Assembly (NCBI GenBank): GCA_001029795.1
Contig: CP011216.1
Span: 70,903 to 134,902 of the forward strand
Reading direction: 5' to 3'
DNA from: a candidate division Kazan bacterium GW2011_GWA1_50_15
GTDB taxonomy: Bacteria > Patescibacteriota > Kazan-3B-28
Length of the DNA: 64,000 nucleotides
This document shows positions 7,451 to 62,325 of the stretch, piece after piece. Both the position numbers and the translations under genes were made by a program. Positions within the stretch are counted from its first letter, which is position 1; each line of letters begins with the position of its first letter. Below the pieces are notes generated by a model. That model saw only the letters and a list, made by a program, of their open reading frames with translations, had not been told where the DNA came from and ran no database searches.

Positions 7451-8248
7451 ATGGCAGAGAAAAAGACAACTGCTAAAAAAGCAGTTAAGAAGTCGGAAGC
7501 ATTAGAGAGCAAGCCAGCCAAAGAGCGGAAACCGAAAGTGCAATTAAGTCCGCCAGCCGGCGGAGGGCACGGCAAGAAATATCTGGCCGTTTTGCCGAAG
7601 GTGGACAAAAATAAATTTTATCCGGTAGCGGAGGTGATCCAACTGGTGAAGGAGACCTCACCGGTCAAGTTCGACGCGACCGCTGAATTGCATCTGCAGA
7701 TGGGTTTGGACCCGAAAAAGTCCGAGCAGAACATCCGCGGAACCGTCACACTACCAGCCGGTACCGGCAAACAGCCGAAAATTCTAGTGCTGGCCGAAGC
7801 GACTGACACTAAAAAGGCCGAGGCGGCCGGCGCCGATTTTGTGGGTCTGGAGGATATGATCGAGAAGATCCAAAAGGGCTGGTTGGGATTTGATGTGGTC
7901 ATCGCCACGCCGGCCGTGATGCCCCAGCTAGGCAAGTTGGGCCAGACATTGGGGACCAAAGGACTGATGCCTAACCCTAAATCTGGTACCGTTACCACTG
8001 ATGTGGCTAAGGCAGTGGAGGAATTCAAAAAGGGGAAAGTCGAGTTTCGCTTGGATAAGGATGCCATTATCCATATGGGTTTCGGTAAGGTCTCGTTTGC
8101 GGCTGAAGATCTGCAGGCCAACCTCAACGCAATCCTGGGAGCTGTGCGGGCGGCCAAGCCCAGTAGTGCTAAGGGTACCTACATCAAGAAACTGTCTCTC
8201 TCGAGTACAATGGGGCCGGGAATAAAAATCGATTTGAACTCCGTTTAG
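7451..8248 (+). CDS. rplA: 50S ribosomal protein L1 (with Lys-rich N-terminal extension)
   Basis: L1 core motifs (GTVTLP, KGLMPNPK.GTVT) preceded by a ~35-aa K/A-rich extension. Confidence 0.85.
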   Translation: MAEKKTTAKKAVKKSEALESKPAKERKPKVQLSPPAGGGHGKKYLAVLPKVDKNKFYPVAEVIQLVKETSPVKFDATAELHLQMGLDPKKSEQNIRGTVTLPAGTGKQPKILVLAEATDTKKAEAAGADFVGLEDMIEKIQKGWLGFDVVIATPAVMPQLGKLGQTLGTKGLMPNPKSGTVTTDVAKAVEEFKKGKVEFRLDKDAIIHMGFGKVSFAAEDLQANLNAILGAVRAAKPSSAKGTYIKKLSLSSTMGPGIKIDLNSV

Positions 8249-8252
8249 GTTT

Positions 8253-8432
8253 TGCAACGCCTGCGCCGCGTTGCATCGGCGGCTACTTTCGTCTTGGCGA
8301 AAGTAGCCAAAGCCGTCCGCCAGTCATTCTGGCTATGAATGGAAGCAAAATTAGCTTTCTGGCTTTCGGCGAACTCGTCGTCCGTCAGCTGACGGACTTC
8401 TCAAACAACGCCTTCGCTGCACTAATTTTGCT
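8253..8432 (+). repeat. Copy 1 of oriented ~170-nt structured 3'-UTR repeat (H1 hairpin, conserved H2 hairpin CTACTTTCGTCTTGGCGAAAGTAG, CAAAGCCGT, long closed stem-loop B)
   Basis: H1 8253-8275 (TGCAACGC/GCGTTGCA), H2 8282-8307 (10 bp stem, loop TCTTGG), B closing stem 8344-8354 with 8422-8432. Homologous to copies at 11739, 25202, 38198, 49104. Confidence 0.7.
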
Positions 8433-8494
8433 AATTCAGGACGCCAGAACTCCAATGGCGGTGTCCTCGGGCGGGGATGATATAATGCAGAGTC

Positions 8495-29449: not shown

Positions 29450-29545
29450 TCTCGAGAGGGAAACGGGAGTGCGTTTCCCTCTCGACGTTCGTGGGCAAAG
29501 CCCGTTCCGGCGTAGCCGGAACGGGCTCACTGCTCTCCCTTCCAC
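29450..29545 (+). repeat. Family-2 structured 3'-UTR repeat, copy A (after rpsU stop)
   Basis: Hairpin TCTCGAGAGGGAAAC...GTTTCCCTCTCGA (stem base is the palindrome CTCTCGAGAG), then CGTTCGTGGGCAAAGCCCGTTCCGGCGTAGCCGGAACGGGCTCACTGCTCTC. Near-identical copy at 33008. Confidence 0.65.
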
Positions 29546-33007: not shown

Positions 33008-33103
33008 TCTCGAGAGAGGAACGGGGTGTGTTCCTCTCTCGACGTTCATGGGCAAAGCCCATTCCGGCTACGCCGGAACAAGCTCACTGCTCTCACCTCC
33101 ACC
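33008..33103 (+). repeat. Family-2 structured 3'-UTR repeat, copy B (after ftsZ stop)
   Basis: Hairpin TCGAGAGAGGAAC...GTTCCTCTCTCGA with compensatory changes vs copy A, then GGGCAAAGCCCATTCCGGCTACGCCGGAACAAGCTCACTGCTCTCAC. Confidence 0.65.
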
Positions 33104-33143: not shown

Positions 33144-33377
33144 GTGGAGTGGGGAGCAGAGCCGCCAGGTCGAGCGAAGCGAAACTCAGCTTTTGCTGAC
33201 GGCTCGATGAGGGGAGAACACCCCCACGTTCTCCCCTCATGATGTTATGGGGATAAAAGGAGGGGATAACTAGTGTCAGAGTAGATTTGAGGGAAACACT
33301 AGATATGGGGTTAGTATTGTAGTTGCGACCACAAAATGCAGTAGTTCCTCGGTTCCTCGGCATGACAGTCAAAAAAG

Positions 33378-37981: not shown

Positions 37982-38206
37982 ATGAGAATAAAAGTAGTGG
38001 TCGTACCCCGGTCCAGCCGCAACGCCATCGAGGAACTGCCGGATGGCAGTTTTAAAGTGTGGGTACGGGCCGTTCCAGAGAAGGGGAAGGCCAATCTGGC
38101 CGTCATTGAACTGTTGGCGCTGAATTTTCGAGTGCCCAAAACCCAAATCGAACTTATTTCTGGGCATCGAGATAAACATAAAATTTTTGAGATTTTTGAA
38201 GCGTGA
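37982..38206 (+). CDS. DUF167 (YggU-like) family protein
   Basis: IKVVVVPRSSRNAIEE...KVWVRAVPEKGKANLAVIELLA matches DUF167. Confidence 0.65.
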   Translation: MRIKVVVVPRSSRNAIEELPDGSFKVWVRAVPEKGKANLAVIELLALNFRVPKTQIELISGHRDKHKIFEIFEA

Positions 38207-38364
38207 AATGACGCTTCACCCATTGCTACTTTTGTCTTGCCAAAAGTAGCCAAAAGCGTGGCCCGCTCACCAATTGCTAACCGAAAGGCAAAATCTGCTT
38301 TCTGGCTTTCGGCAAACTCGTCGCCTTGCTCCTTAGACAGTGCCTGCGCTACGCAGATTTTGCC
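38198..38364 (+). repeat. Copy 4 of ~170-nt structured 3'-UTR repeat (H1 spans the DUF167 stop codon)
   Basis: H1 38198-38217 (GAAGCGT/ACGCTTC with TGA in the loop), H2 38225-38250 (GCTACTTTTG tcttgc CAAAAGTAGC, compensatory T-A vs C-G), CAAAAGCGT, B stem 38287-38298 with 38353-38364. Confidence 0.7.
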
Positions 38365-38533
38365 ATCGGCGGACGCAATTGCCTCGAAGGGCCGGGTAAG
38401 AGCATAGCATGGTTAGCCTGAGGGATGCCGCTGGGAAGATGACCCCACGCCGAAGGGCTACGGGGGAATAATGCTGGTCAGGAGGATAAAATCGGCTATA
38501 ATGAGGGGGATATTTTTTGATATTAGACAAGAT

Positions 38534-48546: not shown

Positions 48547-48631
48547 ATTTACACCTATTGACAGCGGAGGGGGTTAACGTATAATCAAAACTATTCTTGG
48601 GAGGCCGAGTGTTCCCAGGGAGTAATAAAGC

Positions 48632-49099
48632 ATGGGAGTTCAAGAATTGTATATCTCGCAGCAAGGTCTAGAAAATCTTAAGCGCGAGCTGGAGGAATTA
48701 AAACAGCAGCGGGTTGAGATCACTGAAAAGATCAAAGACGCCCGTGAGTTTGGCGACTTATCCGAAAACGCTGAGTATCAAGAAGCCAAGACTAAACAAT
48801 CGTTTATTGAAGGGCGCATCGAGGAGATCGAGGCGACCTTGAAAATGGCTAAAGTTATCGATGCAAAAAATAATGCTAACGGCGAGATCAGTGTTGGTTC
48901 GACGGTAGTGGTAGACGGGACTGGCCGCGAAGTAACTTATCAGATCGTGGGTTCTAATGAAGTGAGTCCCGAAGAGGGCAAGATCTCTAACGAATCACCA
49001 TTAGGTGTTGCGTTGATGGGTCACCGAGCCGGGGACAGAGTGATGGTGCCGATGGCGGATGGAGAGGAACGTGAGTATTTGATTGTGAAAGTTAGTTAA
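48632..49099 (+). CDS. greA: Transcription elongation factor GreA
   Basis: Coiled-coil N-terminus with DLSENAEY motif and FKBP-like C-terminus. Confidence 0.85.
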   Translation: MGVQELYISQQGLENLKRELEELKQQRVEITEKIKDAREFGDLSENAEYQEAKTKQSFIEGRIEEIEATLKMAKVIDAKNNANGEISVGSTVVVDGTGREVTYQIVGSNEVSPEEGKISNESPLGVALMGHRAGDRVMVPMADGEEREYLIVKVS

Positions 49100-49103
49100 T
49101 TTT

Positions 49104-49284
49104 TTGCAACGCTCTCAAGCCGCCATTGCATCGGCGTTTTTTTGCCGCATTTTGCTTGCCCAAAACGCGGCACCAAAAGGGCGCCTCACTCACCAATTCA
49201 GTTGCCAAAAACCAAAATCACCCTTTCTGGATTTAACCGCAAACTCGCTCCGCTCAGACATGCTCACCCAGACCGGGTGATTTT
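49104..49284 (+). repeat. Copy 5 of ~170-nt structured 3'-UTR repeat (after greA; H2 outer stem replaced by GCCGC/GCGGC)
   Basis: H1-like 49104-49130 followed by T7. H2 49144-49171 (GCCGCATTTTG cttgcc CAAAACGCGGC). B stem 49214-49223 with 49275-49284; B core nearly identical to copy 2 (CCAGACCGGGTGATTTT). Confidence 0.65.
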
Positions 49285-49447
49285 GCTACTGGCAATCTGA
49301 ATTGCTTCGATGGGTCCCATCGGGAACGGCCCTCTTCCAATGGCGGATGGAGAACGGGGGAAGTGCGGTGTGCTCGGACAGTCCCAAAACTTATCACTTT
49401 TAACTTATCACTGGTGCTCTCTCGAGAACTGATATACTAAGATAGTT

Positions 49448-50920
49448 ATGGAACAGAGTTTGGAACAAATTATTGCCGCGCGCCTCGACAAGCTAAGAGA
49501 ATTGCGGCGGGAGGGAGTTGATCCTTATCCGGCTAAGTCGGCCCGGACGCTAACCGCGGCTGACTTTATTGCCAAGTTTAGTGCTCTCAAGCGGGCCAAG
49601 AAGTCAGTGACATTAGCCGGCCGCTTGATGGTCATGCGCGAATTCGGGGGCTTAACTTTCGGAATATTGAAAGACGGATACGGCCAGACCCAGATTTTGT
49701 TTAAGAAAGATGAGTTTGGAGCGAAGGCCTATCAGGGCCTGAAATTATTGGATGCCGGTGACATCATCCAGACTAAGGGTACGGCGATGTTGACCAAAAA
49801 AGGTGAAAAAACCCTGCTGGTCAAAAAATTTACTCTTTTAGCCAAGAGCTTGCGGCCCCTGCCCGAGAAGTGGCATGGGTTAACGGACCAAGAGGCACGC
49901 TTTCGTCAGCGGTATTTGGATATTCTGCTAAATCTGGAAGTAAAAGACAGATTTGTGATCAAAAATCGCCTCGTGCAGTCGATACGCGAATTTTTATTGC
50001 GCGAGGGCTACATCGAGGTGGATACCCCGGCACTTCAGCCTCTGCCGGGCGGCGCTCTGGCGGCTCCCTTCAAGACCCACTATCAGGCGACCAATTCGGA
50101 TGTTTATCTGCGAATCGCGCCGGAGCTGTATCTCAAACGCCTAATCGTCGGCGGGATGGAGAGAGTGTTCGAGTTCGCCCGGGTGTTTCGCAACGAGGGC
50201 GTCTCGACCCAACATCTGCAGGACTTCACGATGTTAGAGTTTTATCAGGCCTATGCCGACTATAACGAGTTGATGAAGCTGACTGAAGAGATGCTGTCGG
50301 GCGCGGTGAAAGAGATATTTGGCACGACTAAAGTTAAATTCGGAGGGCAACTTATTGATTGGAAAACACCCTGGCCGAAGAAAAGTTTCCGGGAACTGAT
50401 CAGGCAACACGCCGGCATCGATATCGATAAGTTCCCGACGGCGGAGTCGTTGCAGGCAGAGATCAAGCGCAAAAAAATTAAATTGACCTATGCGGGGCGA
50501 GCCGGACGCGGCAAGCTGATAGACGAACTTTACAAAGAGACCGCGCGGCCTAAGTTGGTCAATCCAGTGTTTTTGGTGGATCATCCGCTCGATCTATCGC
50601 CGCTGGCCAAAAAAATGGCAGATGACCCGACTAAGGTCCAACGCTTCCAGTTAGTGGTTGCCGGGATGGAAGTCACGAATGCCTTTTCCGAGTTGAACGA
50701 TCCCATTGACCAGAAGGAGCGATTTCAGTCGCAAGCCAAACTGAAGCGAGCGGGGGACAGCGAGGCTCATTCGATGGACGATGACTTTGTTAAGGCATTG
50801 GAGTACGGCATGCCGCCAACGGCTGGTTGCGGCATCGGTATTGAACGGCTGGTGGCACTGCTGACGGGCGCCGACTCGGTGCGGGAGGCGGTGCTGTTTC
50901 CGTTCGTGAAGGATAAGTAG
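49448..50920 (+). CDS. lysS: Lysyl-tRNA synthetase (class II)
   Basis: OB-fold N-domain plus class II motifs 1-3 (FRNEG, GGIGIERL). Confidence 0.9.
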   Translation: MEQSLEQIIAARLDKLRELRREGVDPYPAKSARTLTAADFIAKFSALKRAKKSVTLAGRLMVMREFGGLTFGILKDGYGQTQILFKKDEFGAKAYQGLKLLDAGDIIQTKGTAMLTKKGEKTLLVKKFTLLAKSLRPLPEKWHGLTDQEARFRQRYLDILLNLEVKDRFVIKNRLVQSIREFLLREGYIEVDTPALQPLPGGALAAPFKTHYQATNSDVYLRIAPELYLKRLIVGGMERVFEFARVFRNEGVSTQHLQDFTMLEFYQAYADYNELMKLTEEMLSGAVKEIFGTTKVKFGGQLIDWKTPWPKKSFRELIRQHAGIDIDKFPTAESLQAEIKRKKIKLTYAGRAGRGKLIDELYKETARPKLVNPVFLVDHPLDLSPLAKKMADDPTKVQRFQLVVAGMEVTNAFSELNDPIDQKERFQSQAKLKRAGDSEAHSMDDDFVKALEYGMPPTAGCGIGIERLVALLTGADSVREAVLFPFVKDK

Positions 50921-51004: not shown

Positions 51005-51394
51005 ATGGGTACCATAAGAATCGTCGTCGTGGACGACGAGGCTATGATCAGAACGGTGGTGGTTAGGAAGTTGGCACTCTGGGGTTATCCAGAGACGGTT
51101 GGGATAGTGCCAGAGATGAGTTCTGAACATACTGCCCAATTGATTCTCGATGCCGCCCCAAATATCGTAGTGATCGACCATGATTTTGGCCTCGATTTTA
51201 CCGGAGTCAATGTGGCCGAATTGCTGCGGCAGGAGGGGTTCGAGGGCGACATCATCGTTTTCTCGTCTCACTCCGTCGAGGCCCAAAAGGCCCTCTTTGG
51301 GCCCTACGAAATTTTGGCTTATGTTGTTAAGCCGGACTCCCAGGGCCTTAGAGAGCCGCTCGAGCGAGCGGCGGAGAAGTACATTGGCCGGTGA
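51005..51394 (+). CDS. Stand-alone response-regulator receiver domain protein
   Basis: IRIVVVDDEAMIR...D...K receiver pattern. Start at ATG 51005. Confidence 0.6.
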   Translation: MGTIRIVVVDDEAMIRTVVVRKLALWGYPETVGIVPEMSSEHTAQLILDAAPNIVVIDHDFGLDFTGVNVAELLRQEGFEGDIIVFSSHSVEAQKALFGPYEILAYVVKPDSQGLREPLERAAEKYIGR

Positions 51395-51418
51395 CGTATG
51401 TCACCGGCATTTTTTTTA
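51389..51418 (+). terminator. Rho-independent terminator (CCGGTGACGTATGTCACCGG + TTTTTTTT)
   Basis: Perfect 8-bp hairpin plus T8 read directly. Confidence 0.8.
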
Positions 51419-53791: not shown

Positions 53792-53819
53792 ACCCGCCCC
53801 TTCGGGGGCGGGTTTTTAA
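53792..53819 (+). terminator. Rho-independent terminator (ACCCGCCCC ttcg GGGGCGGGT + TTTT)
   Basis: 9-bp GC stem, tetraloop, T-run. Confidence 0.75.
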
Positions 53820-59265: not shown

Positions 59266-59407
59266 GTTGCACATTTAAAGGTTGGGAGTCTCGATTTGTC
59301 GGGACTCCCGCCTCCACTCTTGGTCATCATGATTGCTTCCCCCAGGTAATCATGGTGGCCAAAAGTGGGGGAATATACTAGACACATTATTTATGGAGTA
59401 CAAGACA

Positions 59408-62260
59408 ATGGATGTTTTAAAAACGGTCGGTAGACGGATATACTTTCAGGTGCGTAGATTAAAGAAAGCCATGAGGAACTGGAAAAAGTTTGGCGTGATA
59501 ATTTTTGGCGGGTTAGTACTGGCGATGAACGTCCTGCCAGTTGCTCAAGCAACGGCCGACACACGCCTATTTGAAGTATATGTCGGCATGACGGGTCAGC
59601 ACACCGTGGCAGTCGGAACGCCAGTGGGCTTTACCGCTCAGTCTTATATTGGGGCTGACGATGCTACGACCGATACCAGTTTCAACTGGGAAGTGCGTCA
59701 GGGTACGGCTCTGGTCACCTCGCGGACTGGCGGCACTGCCAGCTACAGTTTTACTCCAACTGCGGCTGGGACGTATGCCATCACTACACGAGGGATTTAT
59801 CAACCAAACCCGATTAAGAGCGCTTGGGCTAAAACCCCAGCCACTTTAACTGTCACTGGCGGCACGACTGACATGCGTCTATTTGAGGTGTATGTTGGCT
59901 ACACCGGCCAAAACTCTATTACGGTCGGGACACCAGCTATTTTCCATGCCGAGTCTCATATTGGGGCTGACGATGCTACGACCGATACCAGTTTCAACTG
60001 GCAGGTGAAGAGGGGAACTGTCTTAGTAGCCTCAACCACTGATTCTGGCAAGGATTATACTTTCACTCCAACTACAGCCGGAACCTATACGATCACGACT
60101 CGCGGTATCTATCGTCCGAATACCACTAAGAGCGCTTGGGCCAAGACCCCGGCGACTCTGACGGCAACTTCAACTACTCCGCCGGAACAGACTCTTGCTA
60201 TTACCATTACCCCCGCCGAGGAGCAGCACACGGTAGTGGGTACGCAATTGCGTGTGCCCTACCAAGCGCGTCCGACCCTGAACGGCCAACCGCTCACGGG
60301 CGGGCTGGTACAGTGGTATGTTAATGGCGCGCCGCGCGGGAACGGTATTAATTTTCCTTACGACGCTTCGATGGTGGCTGGCACTTACGCGGTACGCGCG
60401 GTGTTGAGCTATGACACCCTGCCGGATGCGCAAAGCAACGTGGCTTACGTGTATGTGGCGGAGAAGCCGGAGGCGGACAAGTTTACTACTTTCTATGTTT
60501 ATCCGGACAATAGAACGTTAATTCTTACTCCGGGGGCTGACCAGGAAGATTTCCACTATGTCGCCCAGTTGTCTAATGGTGACAATATTACTCCTGAAGA
60601 GTTGACTTGGCCGGATGTTGGCTTTGGTCAGTTCACGCCTATTTTAAATGGCCGGCACTTTACAGCCACACAACTAGGCAGTGAGACAATTACGATTACG
60701 GCCAAATATCAGGGTGAAACGCTGTTCTATCGGATTCGTATTACAGTGTTACCCGCGGAGACTGGGAACCCGGTCTTGACTCGGGTGACGATCGAACCGC
60801 CGGTTGCTGGTCCGCTGTCAGCGGGTGGAGCGGGGGCTGACTACACCGCGCGGGCTTACGCCGTCACAGCCAACGGCGAGGTGGAGGTTAGCAGCCAGGT
60901 TAATTTCCTGTGGGAGATCGATCCGGTAGCCGTGCGGTATATCGGTACACTCCAAGCTCTGCCGGGGCAGACTCAAGTAGCTCACTTTACTCCCTACGCT
61001 GGAGTGAATGGCAATTTCTATGACGCCATTCACGTCGTAGCCTACTTCGGCAGTCCAGTGCAGATCCGGGACGCTCGGGCCAGCGTATTGATCAATGATG
61101 TGATCATCACGCAAGACCATCTGACTAATCTGACGGTAGCACCGGACCGCTCGGTGATCAGCACTAATGATTCGACGCCGATCCGGGCGCAAGCTTACTC
61201 TAACGGTACGCCGCTGGGCGGCGCAAGTTACAGTTGGCAGATAATCAGCGGAACCGCCACTTTGAGTTCACTGACTGGCCAGGTGGTAACGCTTTATTCG
61301 AACATTTGGACCGGTAATGTTGTCATCCAAGTAACGGCCAATTATAACGCTGATCCATCGATCAGTCGGACGACTACGGTGTTTGTTCAAGGCGCAGTAC
61401 CGCCGATCAATACTATTAATCTGGTGGTTGAGCCGTTGAACCCGACGGTGGTAACGAATAATACTCAGTTATTTACCGCTCGAGTTTACGACAGCAACGG
61501 TGCTAACATTACTAACTTGGTTGATTACGTGAGTTGGTTCAATCAGAACCCGACGGCCGGGACTATCGTTAGCCAGTCTCGCGACAATATGATCTGGCGG
61601 GCAGACAGCGTGCTGGGAACTTTCCCAAGCGCCATCCGGGTGGAGACTCGTTACGGCGGGATGGCTGATACCGAGTACATCACTCCGACAGTGATAATTA
61701 GCGGTCCGACCCCGTTTTACTTCATTAGTCCGTATTTCTACGGTGTGATCGAGGACGGCAGTACGCCGAATGAGGGCGACATCATTATCTACACCATCAC
61801 CCTCACTAATAATCAGCCGAATATGGTGTCGGGTGTGCAGCTGACCACAGACGTGCCAGCCTACACAACGTTCATCTCCGCGACTTCGGCTGTTGACCAT
61901 CCGCGGATCTCTGGCCGGACGATAACCTGGGACGCAGGTACGCTCTATAGTGGCGGGTCACAGACCCTGACCGTGCGGGTGCGCATCAACGAGGGTTTGC
62001 CCAAGAAAGGCATTAGCATCACTGGGTACGCTCATGTGCGAGCCGATCAGCTCCCGCAAGGGTTTAATATCACTTCCAACACGATCGTGGTAGGGAGCGG
62101 AAGCGGTACGCCGGTGACACCAACTGAAGAGCCACTGGCCCCGACCGGAGTTGATTGGCAGACCCTGGTAATGCTGGCACTGGCTTCGATGTTGCTGGCC
62201 GGTGTCGCCATGATAGGACTAGAGCGCCGGGCTGCTAACCGGGCATCAATACAAGAATAA
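59408..62260 (+). CDS. Large cell-surface protein with two tandem ~105-aa repeats, DUF11-like conserved repeat domain and C-terminal LAPTG sortase-type sorting signal
   Basis: Signal peptide ending AQA. Repeats LFEVYVG.TGQ...IGADDATTDTSFNW. Near the C-terminus LAPTG, then a hydrophobic helix, then ERRAANR basic tail. Confidence 0.55.
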   Translation: MDVLKTVGRRIYFQVRRLKKAMRNWKKFGVIIFGGLVLAMNVLPVAQATADTRLFEVYVGMTGQHTVAVGTPVGFTAQSYIGADDATTDTSFNWEVRQGTALVTSRTGGTASYSFTPTAAGTYAITTRGIYQPNPIKSAWAKTPATLTVTGGTTDMRLFEVYVGYTGQNSITVGTPAIFHAESHIGADDATTDTSFNWQVKRGTVLVASTTDSGKDYTFTPTTAGTYTITTRGIYRPNTTKSAWAKTPATLTATSTTPPEQTLAITITPAEEQHTVVGTQLRVPYQARPTLNGQPLTGGLVQWYVNGAPRGNGINFPYDASMVAGTYAVRAVLSYDTLPDAQSNVAYVYVAEKPEADKFTTFYVYPDNRTLILTPGADQEDFHYVAQLSNGDNITPEELTWPDVGFGQFTPILNGRHFTATQLGSETITITAKYQGETLFYRIRITVLPAETGNPVLTRVTIEPPVAGPLSAGGAGADYTARAYAVTANGEVEVSSQVNFLWEIDPVAVRYIGTLQALPGQTQVAHFTPYAGVNGNFYDAIHVVAYFGSPVQIRDARASVLINDVIITQDHLTNLTVAPDRSVISTNDSTPIRAQAYSNGTPLGGASYSWQIISGTATLSSLTGQVVTLYSNIWTGNVVIQVTANYNADPSISRTTTVFVQGAVPPINTINLVVEPLNPTVVTNNTQLFTARVYDSNGANITNLVDYVSWFNQNPTAGTIVSQSRDNMIWRADSVLGTFPSAIRVETRYGGMADTEYITPTVIISGPTPFYFISPYFYGVIEDGSTPNEGDIIIYTITLTNNQPNMVSGVQLTTDVPAYTTFISATSAVDHPRISGRTITWDAGTLYSGGSQTLTVRVRINEGLPKKGISITGYAHVRADQLPQGFNITSNTIVVGSGSGTPVTPTEEPLAPTGVDWQTLVMLALASMLLAGVAMIGLERRAANRASIQE
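59561..60180 (+). repeat. Tandem ~310-bp intragenic duplication, including a 43-nt perfect repeat (TATTGGGGCTGACGATGCTACGACCGATACCAGTTTCAACTGG)
   Basis: Two consecutive ~105-aa protein repeats. Identical 43-mer at 59648 and 59958. Confidence 0.7.
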
Positions 62261-62280
62261 GCAGATTAATCATCTACAAA

Positions 62281-62311
62281 ATCCCCCGTCGGCCGACGGG
62301 GGATTTTGTTT
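62281..62311 (+). terminator. Rho-independent terminator (ATCCCCCGTCGG/CCGACGGGGGAT + TTTTGTTTGTT)
   Basis: 12-bp perfect palindrome plus T-rich tail after the surface-protein gene. Confidence 0.7.
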
Positions 62312-62325
62312 GTTATAATTACCTC

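Follow-up and report, generated by a model that had tools for sequence, protein, structure and literature searches.

We asked whether the run of seven T residues (T7) in the spacer between greA and lysS is the intrinsic terminator of greA, and what kind of element the surrounding repeat is. The repeat is the fifth of five copies in the window, by which we mean the whole 64-kb stretch of DNA that was analysed. This copy (copy 5, Table 1) starts 1-7 nt past the greA stop codon in the same direction as greA, and lysS starts at 49448, 3' of both. In the preliminary description of copy 5, a first hairpin (H1) followed by TTTTTTT looked like a true greA terminator, and a divergent second hairpin (H2) was said to keep its shape with a different outer stem, which was read as selection on RNA structure rather than on DNA sequence.

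The T-run downstream of greA

T7 and H2 are present exactly as described. With seven residues T7 is long enough for a U-tract (at least 4-5 residues), but no stable hairpin ends 0-2 nt before it. What directly precedes T7 is not H1 but a 7-nt linker, ATCGGCG. H1 forms an 8-bp hairpin of about -12 kcal/mol in copies 1-4; in copy 5 its 5' arm, GCAACGC, faces only ATTGC, and H1 does not appear in any fold of the region. At the same site an intact H1 (GCAACGC cacatt GCGTTGC) is found in a relative, L077. The best hairpin that abuts T7 in copy 5 is CGCC-8 nt-GGCG, with 4 bp and -5.1 kcal/mol, as against the tight G+C hairpins of -12 to -22 kcal/mol, followed by T5-T8, in the dozen clean intergenic terminators that our own scan of the window listed (examples in Table 1). 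A second terminator scan did not call H1+T7 either. Because of this difference in hairpin energy and the missing call, a true terminator is not supported thermodynamically, and the T-run of copy 5 should not be annotated as the terminator of greA.

We compared the sequence around T7 with that in other copies. Copies with the H2 type of copy 5 are common in the wider family (outer stem, A, TTT(T)G, C-rich loop, CAAA(A), C, outer stem; the GCCRCC-ATTT(T)G type), and in most of them a T-rich leader lies 5' of H2 (e.g. CTTTCTTTTT, TTCTTTT, TTTTCTTTCT); T-rich stretches 5' of H1 or H2 occur in many copies. Another variant, TACTTTCG tcttgg CGAAAGTA, is present in copies 1-4 and in L027, L036, L085 and L112. 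All 27 distinct H2 versions fold into hairpins of 9-13 bp with many different outer stems (copy 5: 10 bp, -11.4 kcal/mol), so that 'same shape, different sequence' was right and holds generally, but the H2 of copy 5 is a common form and not a divergent one. Copy 5 is an ordinary, near-consensus member of the family.

We consider it very improbable that H1 and T7 are a genuine intrinsic terminator of greA and that H2 diverged in place under selection on RNA structure. The presence of T7 and the kept shape of H2 agree with this reading, as does the Kazan ortholog L010 (62% GreA identity), whose copy has a strong terminator-like G+C hairpin followed by the T-rich tract TTTTCTTTCT in the position of H1; the covariation in the family (see below) would fit divergence in place. 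The degraded H1, the weak abutting hairpin and the silent scan speak against the terminator, and divergence in place is countered both by the frequency of this H2 type with its leader elsewhere and by the different version found at this site in a relative with 93% GreA identity (L077).

Some other candidate signals in or near the repeats were rejected. A terminator-like hairpin, TCACCC-AGACC-GGGTGA followed by TTTT (49264-49284), occurs in copy 5 alone; the other type-B copies do not conserve it. Two small ORFs within copy 5 (49104..49280 and 49142..49300) were ruled out as coding because the copies differ by 1-2-nt indels and variable apical inserts. A T-box or riboswitch for lysS was dismissed because the genes that follow other copies are unrelated, or in one case convergent, and a promoter in the 3' arm of copy 2 (TTGACA...TAGAAT) has too long a spacing and was not called by the scan.

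The greA promoter sits just after folD, and the scan found no terminator between folD and greA. As this promoter is perfect, greA together with copy 5 looks like a transcription unit of its own.

Table 1. Positions of the features discussed; numbering is that of the window unless a locus is named.
Feature	Position	Strand	Sequence or remark	Basis
Promoter, sigma-70 type	48558-48585	+	TTGACA-16-TATAAT, perfect 12/12, upstream of greA	promoter scan
greA	48632-49099	+	stop codon 49097-49099	read from sequence
T6 spacer, greA stop codon to element	49100-49105	+		sequence
H1 of copy 5, degraded	49106-49129	+	5' arm GCAACGC 49106-49112, enlarged loop TCTCAAGCCGCC, 3' remnant ATTGC 49125-49129	
PK1, alternative ('second') pairing	49121-49136	+	loop CGCC 49121-49124 with linker GGCG 49133-49136; the only hairpin to abut T7	
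T7 tract, T-rich leader of H2	49137-49143	+		sequence
H2 hairpin	49144-49171	+	GCCGCATTTTG 49144-49154, cttgcc 49155-49160, CAAAACGCGGC 49161-49171	
A-rich linker; PK2 3' strand	49172-49178; 49179-49183	+	ACCAAAA; GGGCG, pairing with H2 loop UGCCC 49157-49161 (duplex -7.7 kcal/mol)	
Rod, 5' arms	49184-49223	+	Pa CC(T)CA 49184-49188; Pb CAATTCAG 49194-49201	MFE fold, model match, covariation
Rod, 5' arms, inner	49202-49207; 49213-49223	+	Pc TTGCCA; Pd CAAAATCACCC	MFE fold, model match, covariation
Conserved core, asymmetric	49224-49274	+	TTTCTGGATTTAACCGCAAACTC...TCAGACATGCTCACCCAGACC; inner pairings CTGG/CCAG and GCA/TGC	alignments
Rod, 3' arms	49275-49314	+	Pd GGGTGATTTTG 49275-49285; Pc TGGCAA 49290-49295	MFE fold, model match, covariation
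Rod, 3' arms, outer	49297-49304; 49311-49314	+	Pb CTGAATTG; Pa TGGG	
3' tail of copy 5	49305-49385	+	CTTCGATGGG, hairpin GATGGGtcCCATC, CTCTTCCAATGGCGG 49332-49346, GCGGTGTGCTCGG 49366-49378	
Copy 1	8254-8462	+	after ORF 7451..8248, which we take from its C-terminus to be ribosomal protein L1-like	94.4 bits
Copy 2	11738-11944	+	after ORF 11204..11740, presumably L7/L12-like from its C-terminus	125.1 bits
Copy 3	25201-25393	+	partly decayed, between convergent genes	29.6 bits
Copy 4	38197-38394	+		124.2 bits
Copy 5	from 1-7 nt past the greA stop codon to ~49385	+	after greA	153.8 bits
Clean terminators, examples	14145-14162; 51387-51408; 53793-53812			terminator scan
GTCATYCTGAnnnnnnGGATCT sites	L010 4520-4560; upstream flanks of L021, L026, L042, L048, L088, L092, L100, L106			

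A modular repeat with covarying structure

Copy 5 very likely belongs to a family of modular, interspersed structured repeats of about 250-300 nt. A covariance model of the rod domain (R1), run over the whole window with filters off, found only five copies in the 64 kb, all on the + strand and 3-13 kb apart. Each begins at, or a few bases from, the stop codon of a + strand gene; in copy 4 the stop codon of the small upstream ORF appears to lie inside H1. Two diagnostic patterns matched four times each in the window (0 expected by chance), and the folds of the five copies had z-scores of -3.8 to -9.5 against shuffled sequences. The R1 match on copy 5 is full length (49166-49317) and the highest of the five; thus the B domain of copy 5, which had been called intact, is more than merely intact. 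The stretch described earlier ended at 49284 and so cut the element inside the rod, before the 3' arms of Pc, Pb and Pa at 49290-49314: the element extends to at least 49317, with a tail to ~49385. Copy 1 has a homologue of this tail at its 3' end (CTCCAATGGCGGTGTCCTCGG); in copy 5 the 3' boundary is fuzzy.

The modules follow each other as H1, with a loop complementary to the following linker (PK1); a T-rich leader; H2, with a loop that pairs past an A-rich linker (PK2); an interrupted rod, Pa-Pb-Pc-Pd; a non-palindromic core with an optional apical hairpin; and a CTCCAATGG-type tail. Such tail motifs recur in other genomes as well. The family core, CTTTCTGG...AAACTC...TCARACA, is enclosed by Pa-Pb-Pc-Pd, and copy 5 conforms to it; the apical hairpin is absent from the core of copy 5 and variable or missing in other copies. 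The apex of copy 1 (8383-8400) is an 18-nt palindrome, GTCCGTCAGCTGACGGAC, and the identical 18-mer forms the apex of the diverged greA-spacer copy in L080 (5057-5074). In other genomes, CAGCTG-centred mini-palindromes (e.g. CCGCCAGCTGGCGG) and CCTGCCTACCGGCAGGCAGG are repeatedly nested within elements.

Each copy was folded, the check proposed in the preliminary description; in copy 5 H2 and the rod helices formed, and H1 was absent from the MFE folds. That the family keeps its folds despite sequence turnover was borne out. In 28 model-aligned copies, 92.2% of the rod cells were paired compared to 78.8% in shuffled alignments, sliding the partners by one column reduced pairing to 54% or less, and 18 of the 28 rod pairs had changes on both sides. 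The conservation of structure is thus real. The invariance of AAAAT/ATTTT and of CTTTCTGG is partly forced by the search pattern; since this pattern demanded AAAAT, we discounted the AAAAT/ATTTT invariance in Pd as a sign of a U-tract requirement. Type C copies, which were found by the model, keep the A/T tracts, and L077 and L080 are without them.

As the MAFFT alignment of H2 and PK2 was out of register, the loop pairings were assessed by permutation tests of duplex energy. In PK1 the linker that begins 2-4 nt past H1 holds the complement of the H1 loop, and at least 10 different sequences covary (CGCC/GGCG, GGCG/CGCC, AATG/CATT, GCTGG/CCAGC, GACGG/CCGTC and AATCG/CGATT among them), and the duplex energy of a loop with its own partner compared to permuted partners gave z = -8.2 (20 copies). 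Copy 5 retains the CGCC/GGCG pairing although its H1 stem (6-8 bp as the family norm) is degraded. By standard pseudoknot geometry a connector of 2-4 nt cannot span an H1 of 6-8 bp, so that PK1 cannot coexist with a full H1 and probably represents an alternative pairing rather than a static pseudoknot. In PK2 the H2 loop pairs with the segment past the A-rich linker (permutation p about 0.001; UGCCC/GGGCG in copy 5, GCCC/GGGC, CACCC/GGGTG, CGCCC/GGGCG, CCGCC/GGCGG and TGTC/GACA); from standard pseudoknot geometry, its 7-nt A-rich connector should be able to span H2. PK2 is missing from type C copies.

Can the covariation tell which molecule is selected? In the rod we counted 15 G.U pairs and 13 A.C mismatches. 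As the two are equally frequent, the wobble signature of a + strand RNA is absent, and the earlier conclusion that selection acts on RNA rather than DNA is not supported; the selected molecule may be RNA or single-stranded DNA. The strand specificity of the element comes from its non-palindromic conserved core and its orientation.

The two covarying loop-to-downstream pairings, the conserved unpaired core beside freely covarying stems, a PK2 connecting strand long enough to span H2 and the lack of an Rfam match would all suit a new, multi-copy class of functional structured RNA, comparable to HEARO. It could comprise ribozymes, RNAs that are processed or act in trans, or the RNA of a mobile element, with core and pseudoknots as the active or protein-binding site. 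We regard this as quite improbable, as the element lacks both an associated gene and its own promoter, some copies have decayed (copy 3, H1 of copy 5), modules are swapped or lost (as PK2 in type C) and the strand signature is absent. It is also improbable that the family is a new, CPR-specific class of large structured RNA with the two pairings and the core as a switch, catalytic or protein-binding centre. If it were, a switch between H1 and a CGCC/GGCG-type hairpin might, for example, couple events at the stop codon to termination, or the RNA might be part of an unrecognised mobile element.

Distribution, position and turnover of the family

A scan of species-representative genomes with a B-domain pattern returned 69 loci; 23 were judged real, and all of these are from Patescibacteria. 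R1 had 28 strong matches in the species-representative genomes, and a type-B pattern scan of metagenomes added 30 loci. More than 50 copies were recovered from Kazan-related Patescibacteria, and within the genomes and metagenomes searched the family appears to be confined to this part of the CPR. Two pattern matches in viral contigs were not matched by the model at an E-value cut-off of 1e-15. Against Rfam, the window gave only tRNAs at the gathering score, and copies 2 and 5 gave nothing credible at E-values up to 10. The literature search found no description of the family; its only recurring match, TIGR-Tas, concerns tandem arrays and not dispersed repeats. The family is apparently undescribed.

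The exact GreA protein is also present in groundwater assemblies and in GCA_003527425.1, and its nearest named relatives are from candidate division Kazan. In contigs of the identical strain the greA-lysS spacer is identical and hence uninformative, with one NN-scaffolded hybrid. In this one (L002, GCA_003527425.1, 8770-8825) a 51-nt insertion with NN inside copy 5 resembles another copy of the family and is probably a repeat-induced scaffolding artefact. In genomes of other Patescibacteria, the elements often have a separate short hairpin repeat immediately on their 5' side (GTCATYCTGAnnnnnnGGATCT, Table 1).

We compared the greA spacer among relatives. L077 (93% GreA identity) has the intact H1, a different H2 and a different rod type, followed by a type-B rod 3' half; L080 (73%) has a strongly diverged copy; and L079 (74%), L081 (68%) and L082 (69%) have no element after greA, only a canonical terminator. 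Because a relative with 93% GreA identity holds a different version, turnover at the greA-lysS site looks like replacement or recombination of modules. The body of copy 5 shares 85.5% and 81.6% identity with copies from two other genomes, but only 44-60% with the other copies of its own genome. One MAG has near-identical bodies at several contig ends, and partial, duplicated and tandem fragments as well as nested small palindromes are seen in the elements. Copy 2 and the L038 copy are orthologous, both standing after an L7/L12-like gene, and their Pb helices differ by a compensatory double change (CAAACTGT/ACAGTTTG against CAAAATGT/ACATTTTG). Given this orthologous pair on the one hand and the patchy, exchanged modules of the greA spacer on the other, the family both persists at sites and is reshuffled or proliferates.

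The copies are co-directional with the upstream ORF in 27 of 29 cases in the genome set and 18 of 21 in the metagenome set (the sets share some loci); eight stand in convergent spacers and none in a divergent one. An antisense exception is the intact, top-scoring copy L046 (167 bits), which lies between two genes. Since nearly all genes in the window are on the + strand, gene direction and replication direction are inseparable in these data. GreA is a recurrent upstream neighbour (five loci). When ORFs within 2.5 kb of the copies were clustered, no transposase-like family recurred next to them; the recurrent neighbours were housekeeping genes and one XerD-like family in three loci, two of which may be the same locus. 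Its ORF, which we take from the sequence to be tyrosine-recombinase-like (e.g. L089 2240-3181), is on the strand opposite to the adjoining element.

These data bear on a serious rival explanation, a purely DNA-level selfish repeat of the REP/REPIN or IS200/IS605 type, without an RNA role. Here selection would keep the folds because a transposase or recombinase, encoded elsewhere, recognises them as hairpins of single-stranded DNA, and the orientation would reflect the replication strand. The length of the palindrome, its nearly exclusive Watson-Crick pairing and its equal counts of G.U and A.C, the patchy presence at orthologous spacers, the near-identical copies at contig ends, the fragments, tandem partial copies and nested insertions and the intact antisense copy all agree with it, and the shared direction of the window genes leaves room for replication as the cause of the bias. 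We nevertheless hold it to be rather unlikely: conservation is highest in the asymmetric apex and the outer arms show compensated variation, whereas a classical MITE has conserved terminal inverted repeats; convergent spacers outnumber divergent ones eight to none; an orthologous copy was kept with compensatory change; no transposase-like family recurs next to the copies; and no target-site duplication was noticed on (non-rigorous) inspection. No autonomous form was present among the 23 real pattern matches, as the Pd 3' strand always follows 33-94 nt downstream.

The window contains other repeats. A second, unrelated intergenic pair (29466-29545 and 33023-33102) is 84% identical over 80 nt, and 26273-26304 and 33162-33193 are listed with it; the copy at 29466-29545 overlaps a very strong terminator-like hairpin of the - strand (29452-29485, -24 kcal/mol, T6). 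Direct repeats spaced by 312 nt (59640-60169; 95% and 73% identity) inside ORF 59333..62260 appear to encode a repeat within the protein. A direct repeat of 32 nt, its two units spaced by 100 nt (21574-21605 and 21674-21705), lies in the divergent spacer between 20228..21520(-) and 21728..22846(+).

A possible role at operon ends

Finally, we asked what the element might do at the ends of genes. The reading that we tentatively prefer, with not quite even confidence, is a proliferating modular structured repeat that is probably co-transcribed as an operon-end element. The transcript of the upstream gene, here greA, would contain it as its 3' untranslated end, and it would act in cis. It could stop or insulate transcription ahead of the promoter of the next gene; also, or instead, it could protect the mRNA 3' end from exonucleases or serve as a site for RNase III. 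Among its parts Pd, not H1+T7, would most resemble a terminator, with a variable G+C stem between an A-tract and a U-tract (GGGUGAUUUUG). As DNA, the element would spread and be reshuffled non-autonomously, by a trans-acting enzyme or by recombination between copies.

An operon-end module is favoured because the spacers with the element have no separate terminator, relatives without the element have one, and Pd resembles a terminator. In the window the scan found no canonical terminator in the five element-bearing spacers and strong ones at other operon ends. R1 also partly matches canonical terminators of the genome at 9538-9591 and 62264-62323, because Pd has the same layout of A-tract, G+C stem and U-tract. 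Bidirectional terminators were noted at 9557-9571 (CCGCCCtttGGGCGG, A5/T7 flanks) and 62282-62303 (TCCCCCGTCggccGACGGGGGA, AAAA/TTTT flanks). A cis-acting RNA role at operon ends is possible, although doubtful enough that we propose it with reserve. If transcription ended efficiently at Pd, the 3' arms of Pc, Pb and Pa, which covary, would remain untranscribed; the equal numbers of G.U and A.C mark nothing in the + strand RNA as selected; the L046 copy is antisense; and some copies (L036 and L046 flanks) have a normal terminator just downstream.

How does the element compare with known systems? ERIC/IRU, REP/BIME and Correia (NEMIS) repeats of proteobacteria are scattered over transcribed intergenic regions and the 3' ends of genes. 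They are non-coding, imperfectly palindromic and about 100-150 nt long or longer; their RNA forms long hairpins, they can affect termination or the stability of the mRNA, and their presence differs between related genomes. Set side by side by description, the Kazan-related family is likewise interspersed, intergenic, located at gene 3' ends, palindromic and variable in presence. It differs from them in being larger, modular and found in CPR bacteria, in its two 5' hairpins with covarying loop-downstream pairings, its non-palindromic core and its strong orientation bias, and in outer arms that vary by compensatory change where conserved ends might stand. In the MITE comparison, too, the arms of the family pair but vary between copies and the apex is conserved. 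With canonical (bidirectional) intrinsic terminators the element shares the layout of Pd and its presence in spacers where relatives carry a plain terminator; unlike in these, the 'loop' of Pd is a structured core of ~50 nt in copy 5, longer with an apical hairpin, the helices Pc, Pb and Pa extend past the U-tract, and H1+T7 falls short in hairpin strength.

For REPIN/RAYT and IS200/IS605-derived elements, recognition of a fold would explain compensatory variation, persistence and strand bias. Compared to REP hairpins, the present element is far longer and more complex, and no RAYT or TnpA was found among the ORFs within 2.5 kb of the copies. Integron attC sites are similar as structure-conserved, sequence-variable hairpins directly after ORFs in one orientation; the copies of the present family are instead dispersed after housekeeping genes such as greA and not in cassette arrays, and the greA neighbourhood has no integrase, its neighbours being housekeeping genes with Pfam assignments.

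The genomes of Patescibacteria are tiny and streamlined, yet a 250-300-nt repeat stands here at five gene ends in 64 kb and shows strong compensatory evolution. This means that the repeat either is selfish and has been very successful, or belongs to the machinery of gene ends and has been put to repeated use. In both cases the family provides a sizeable covarying alignment of a structured element in a lineage that is uncultivated, a marker that breaks assemblies, and a case in which the construction of operon ends in Patescibacteria can be tested.
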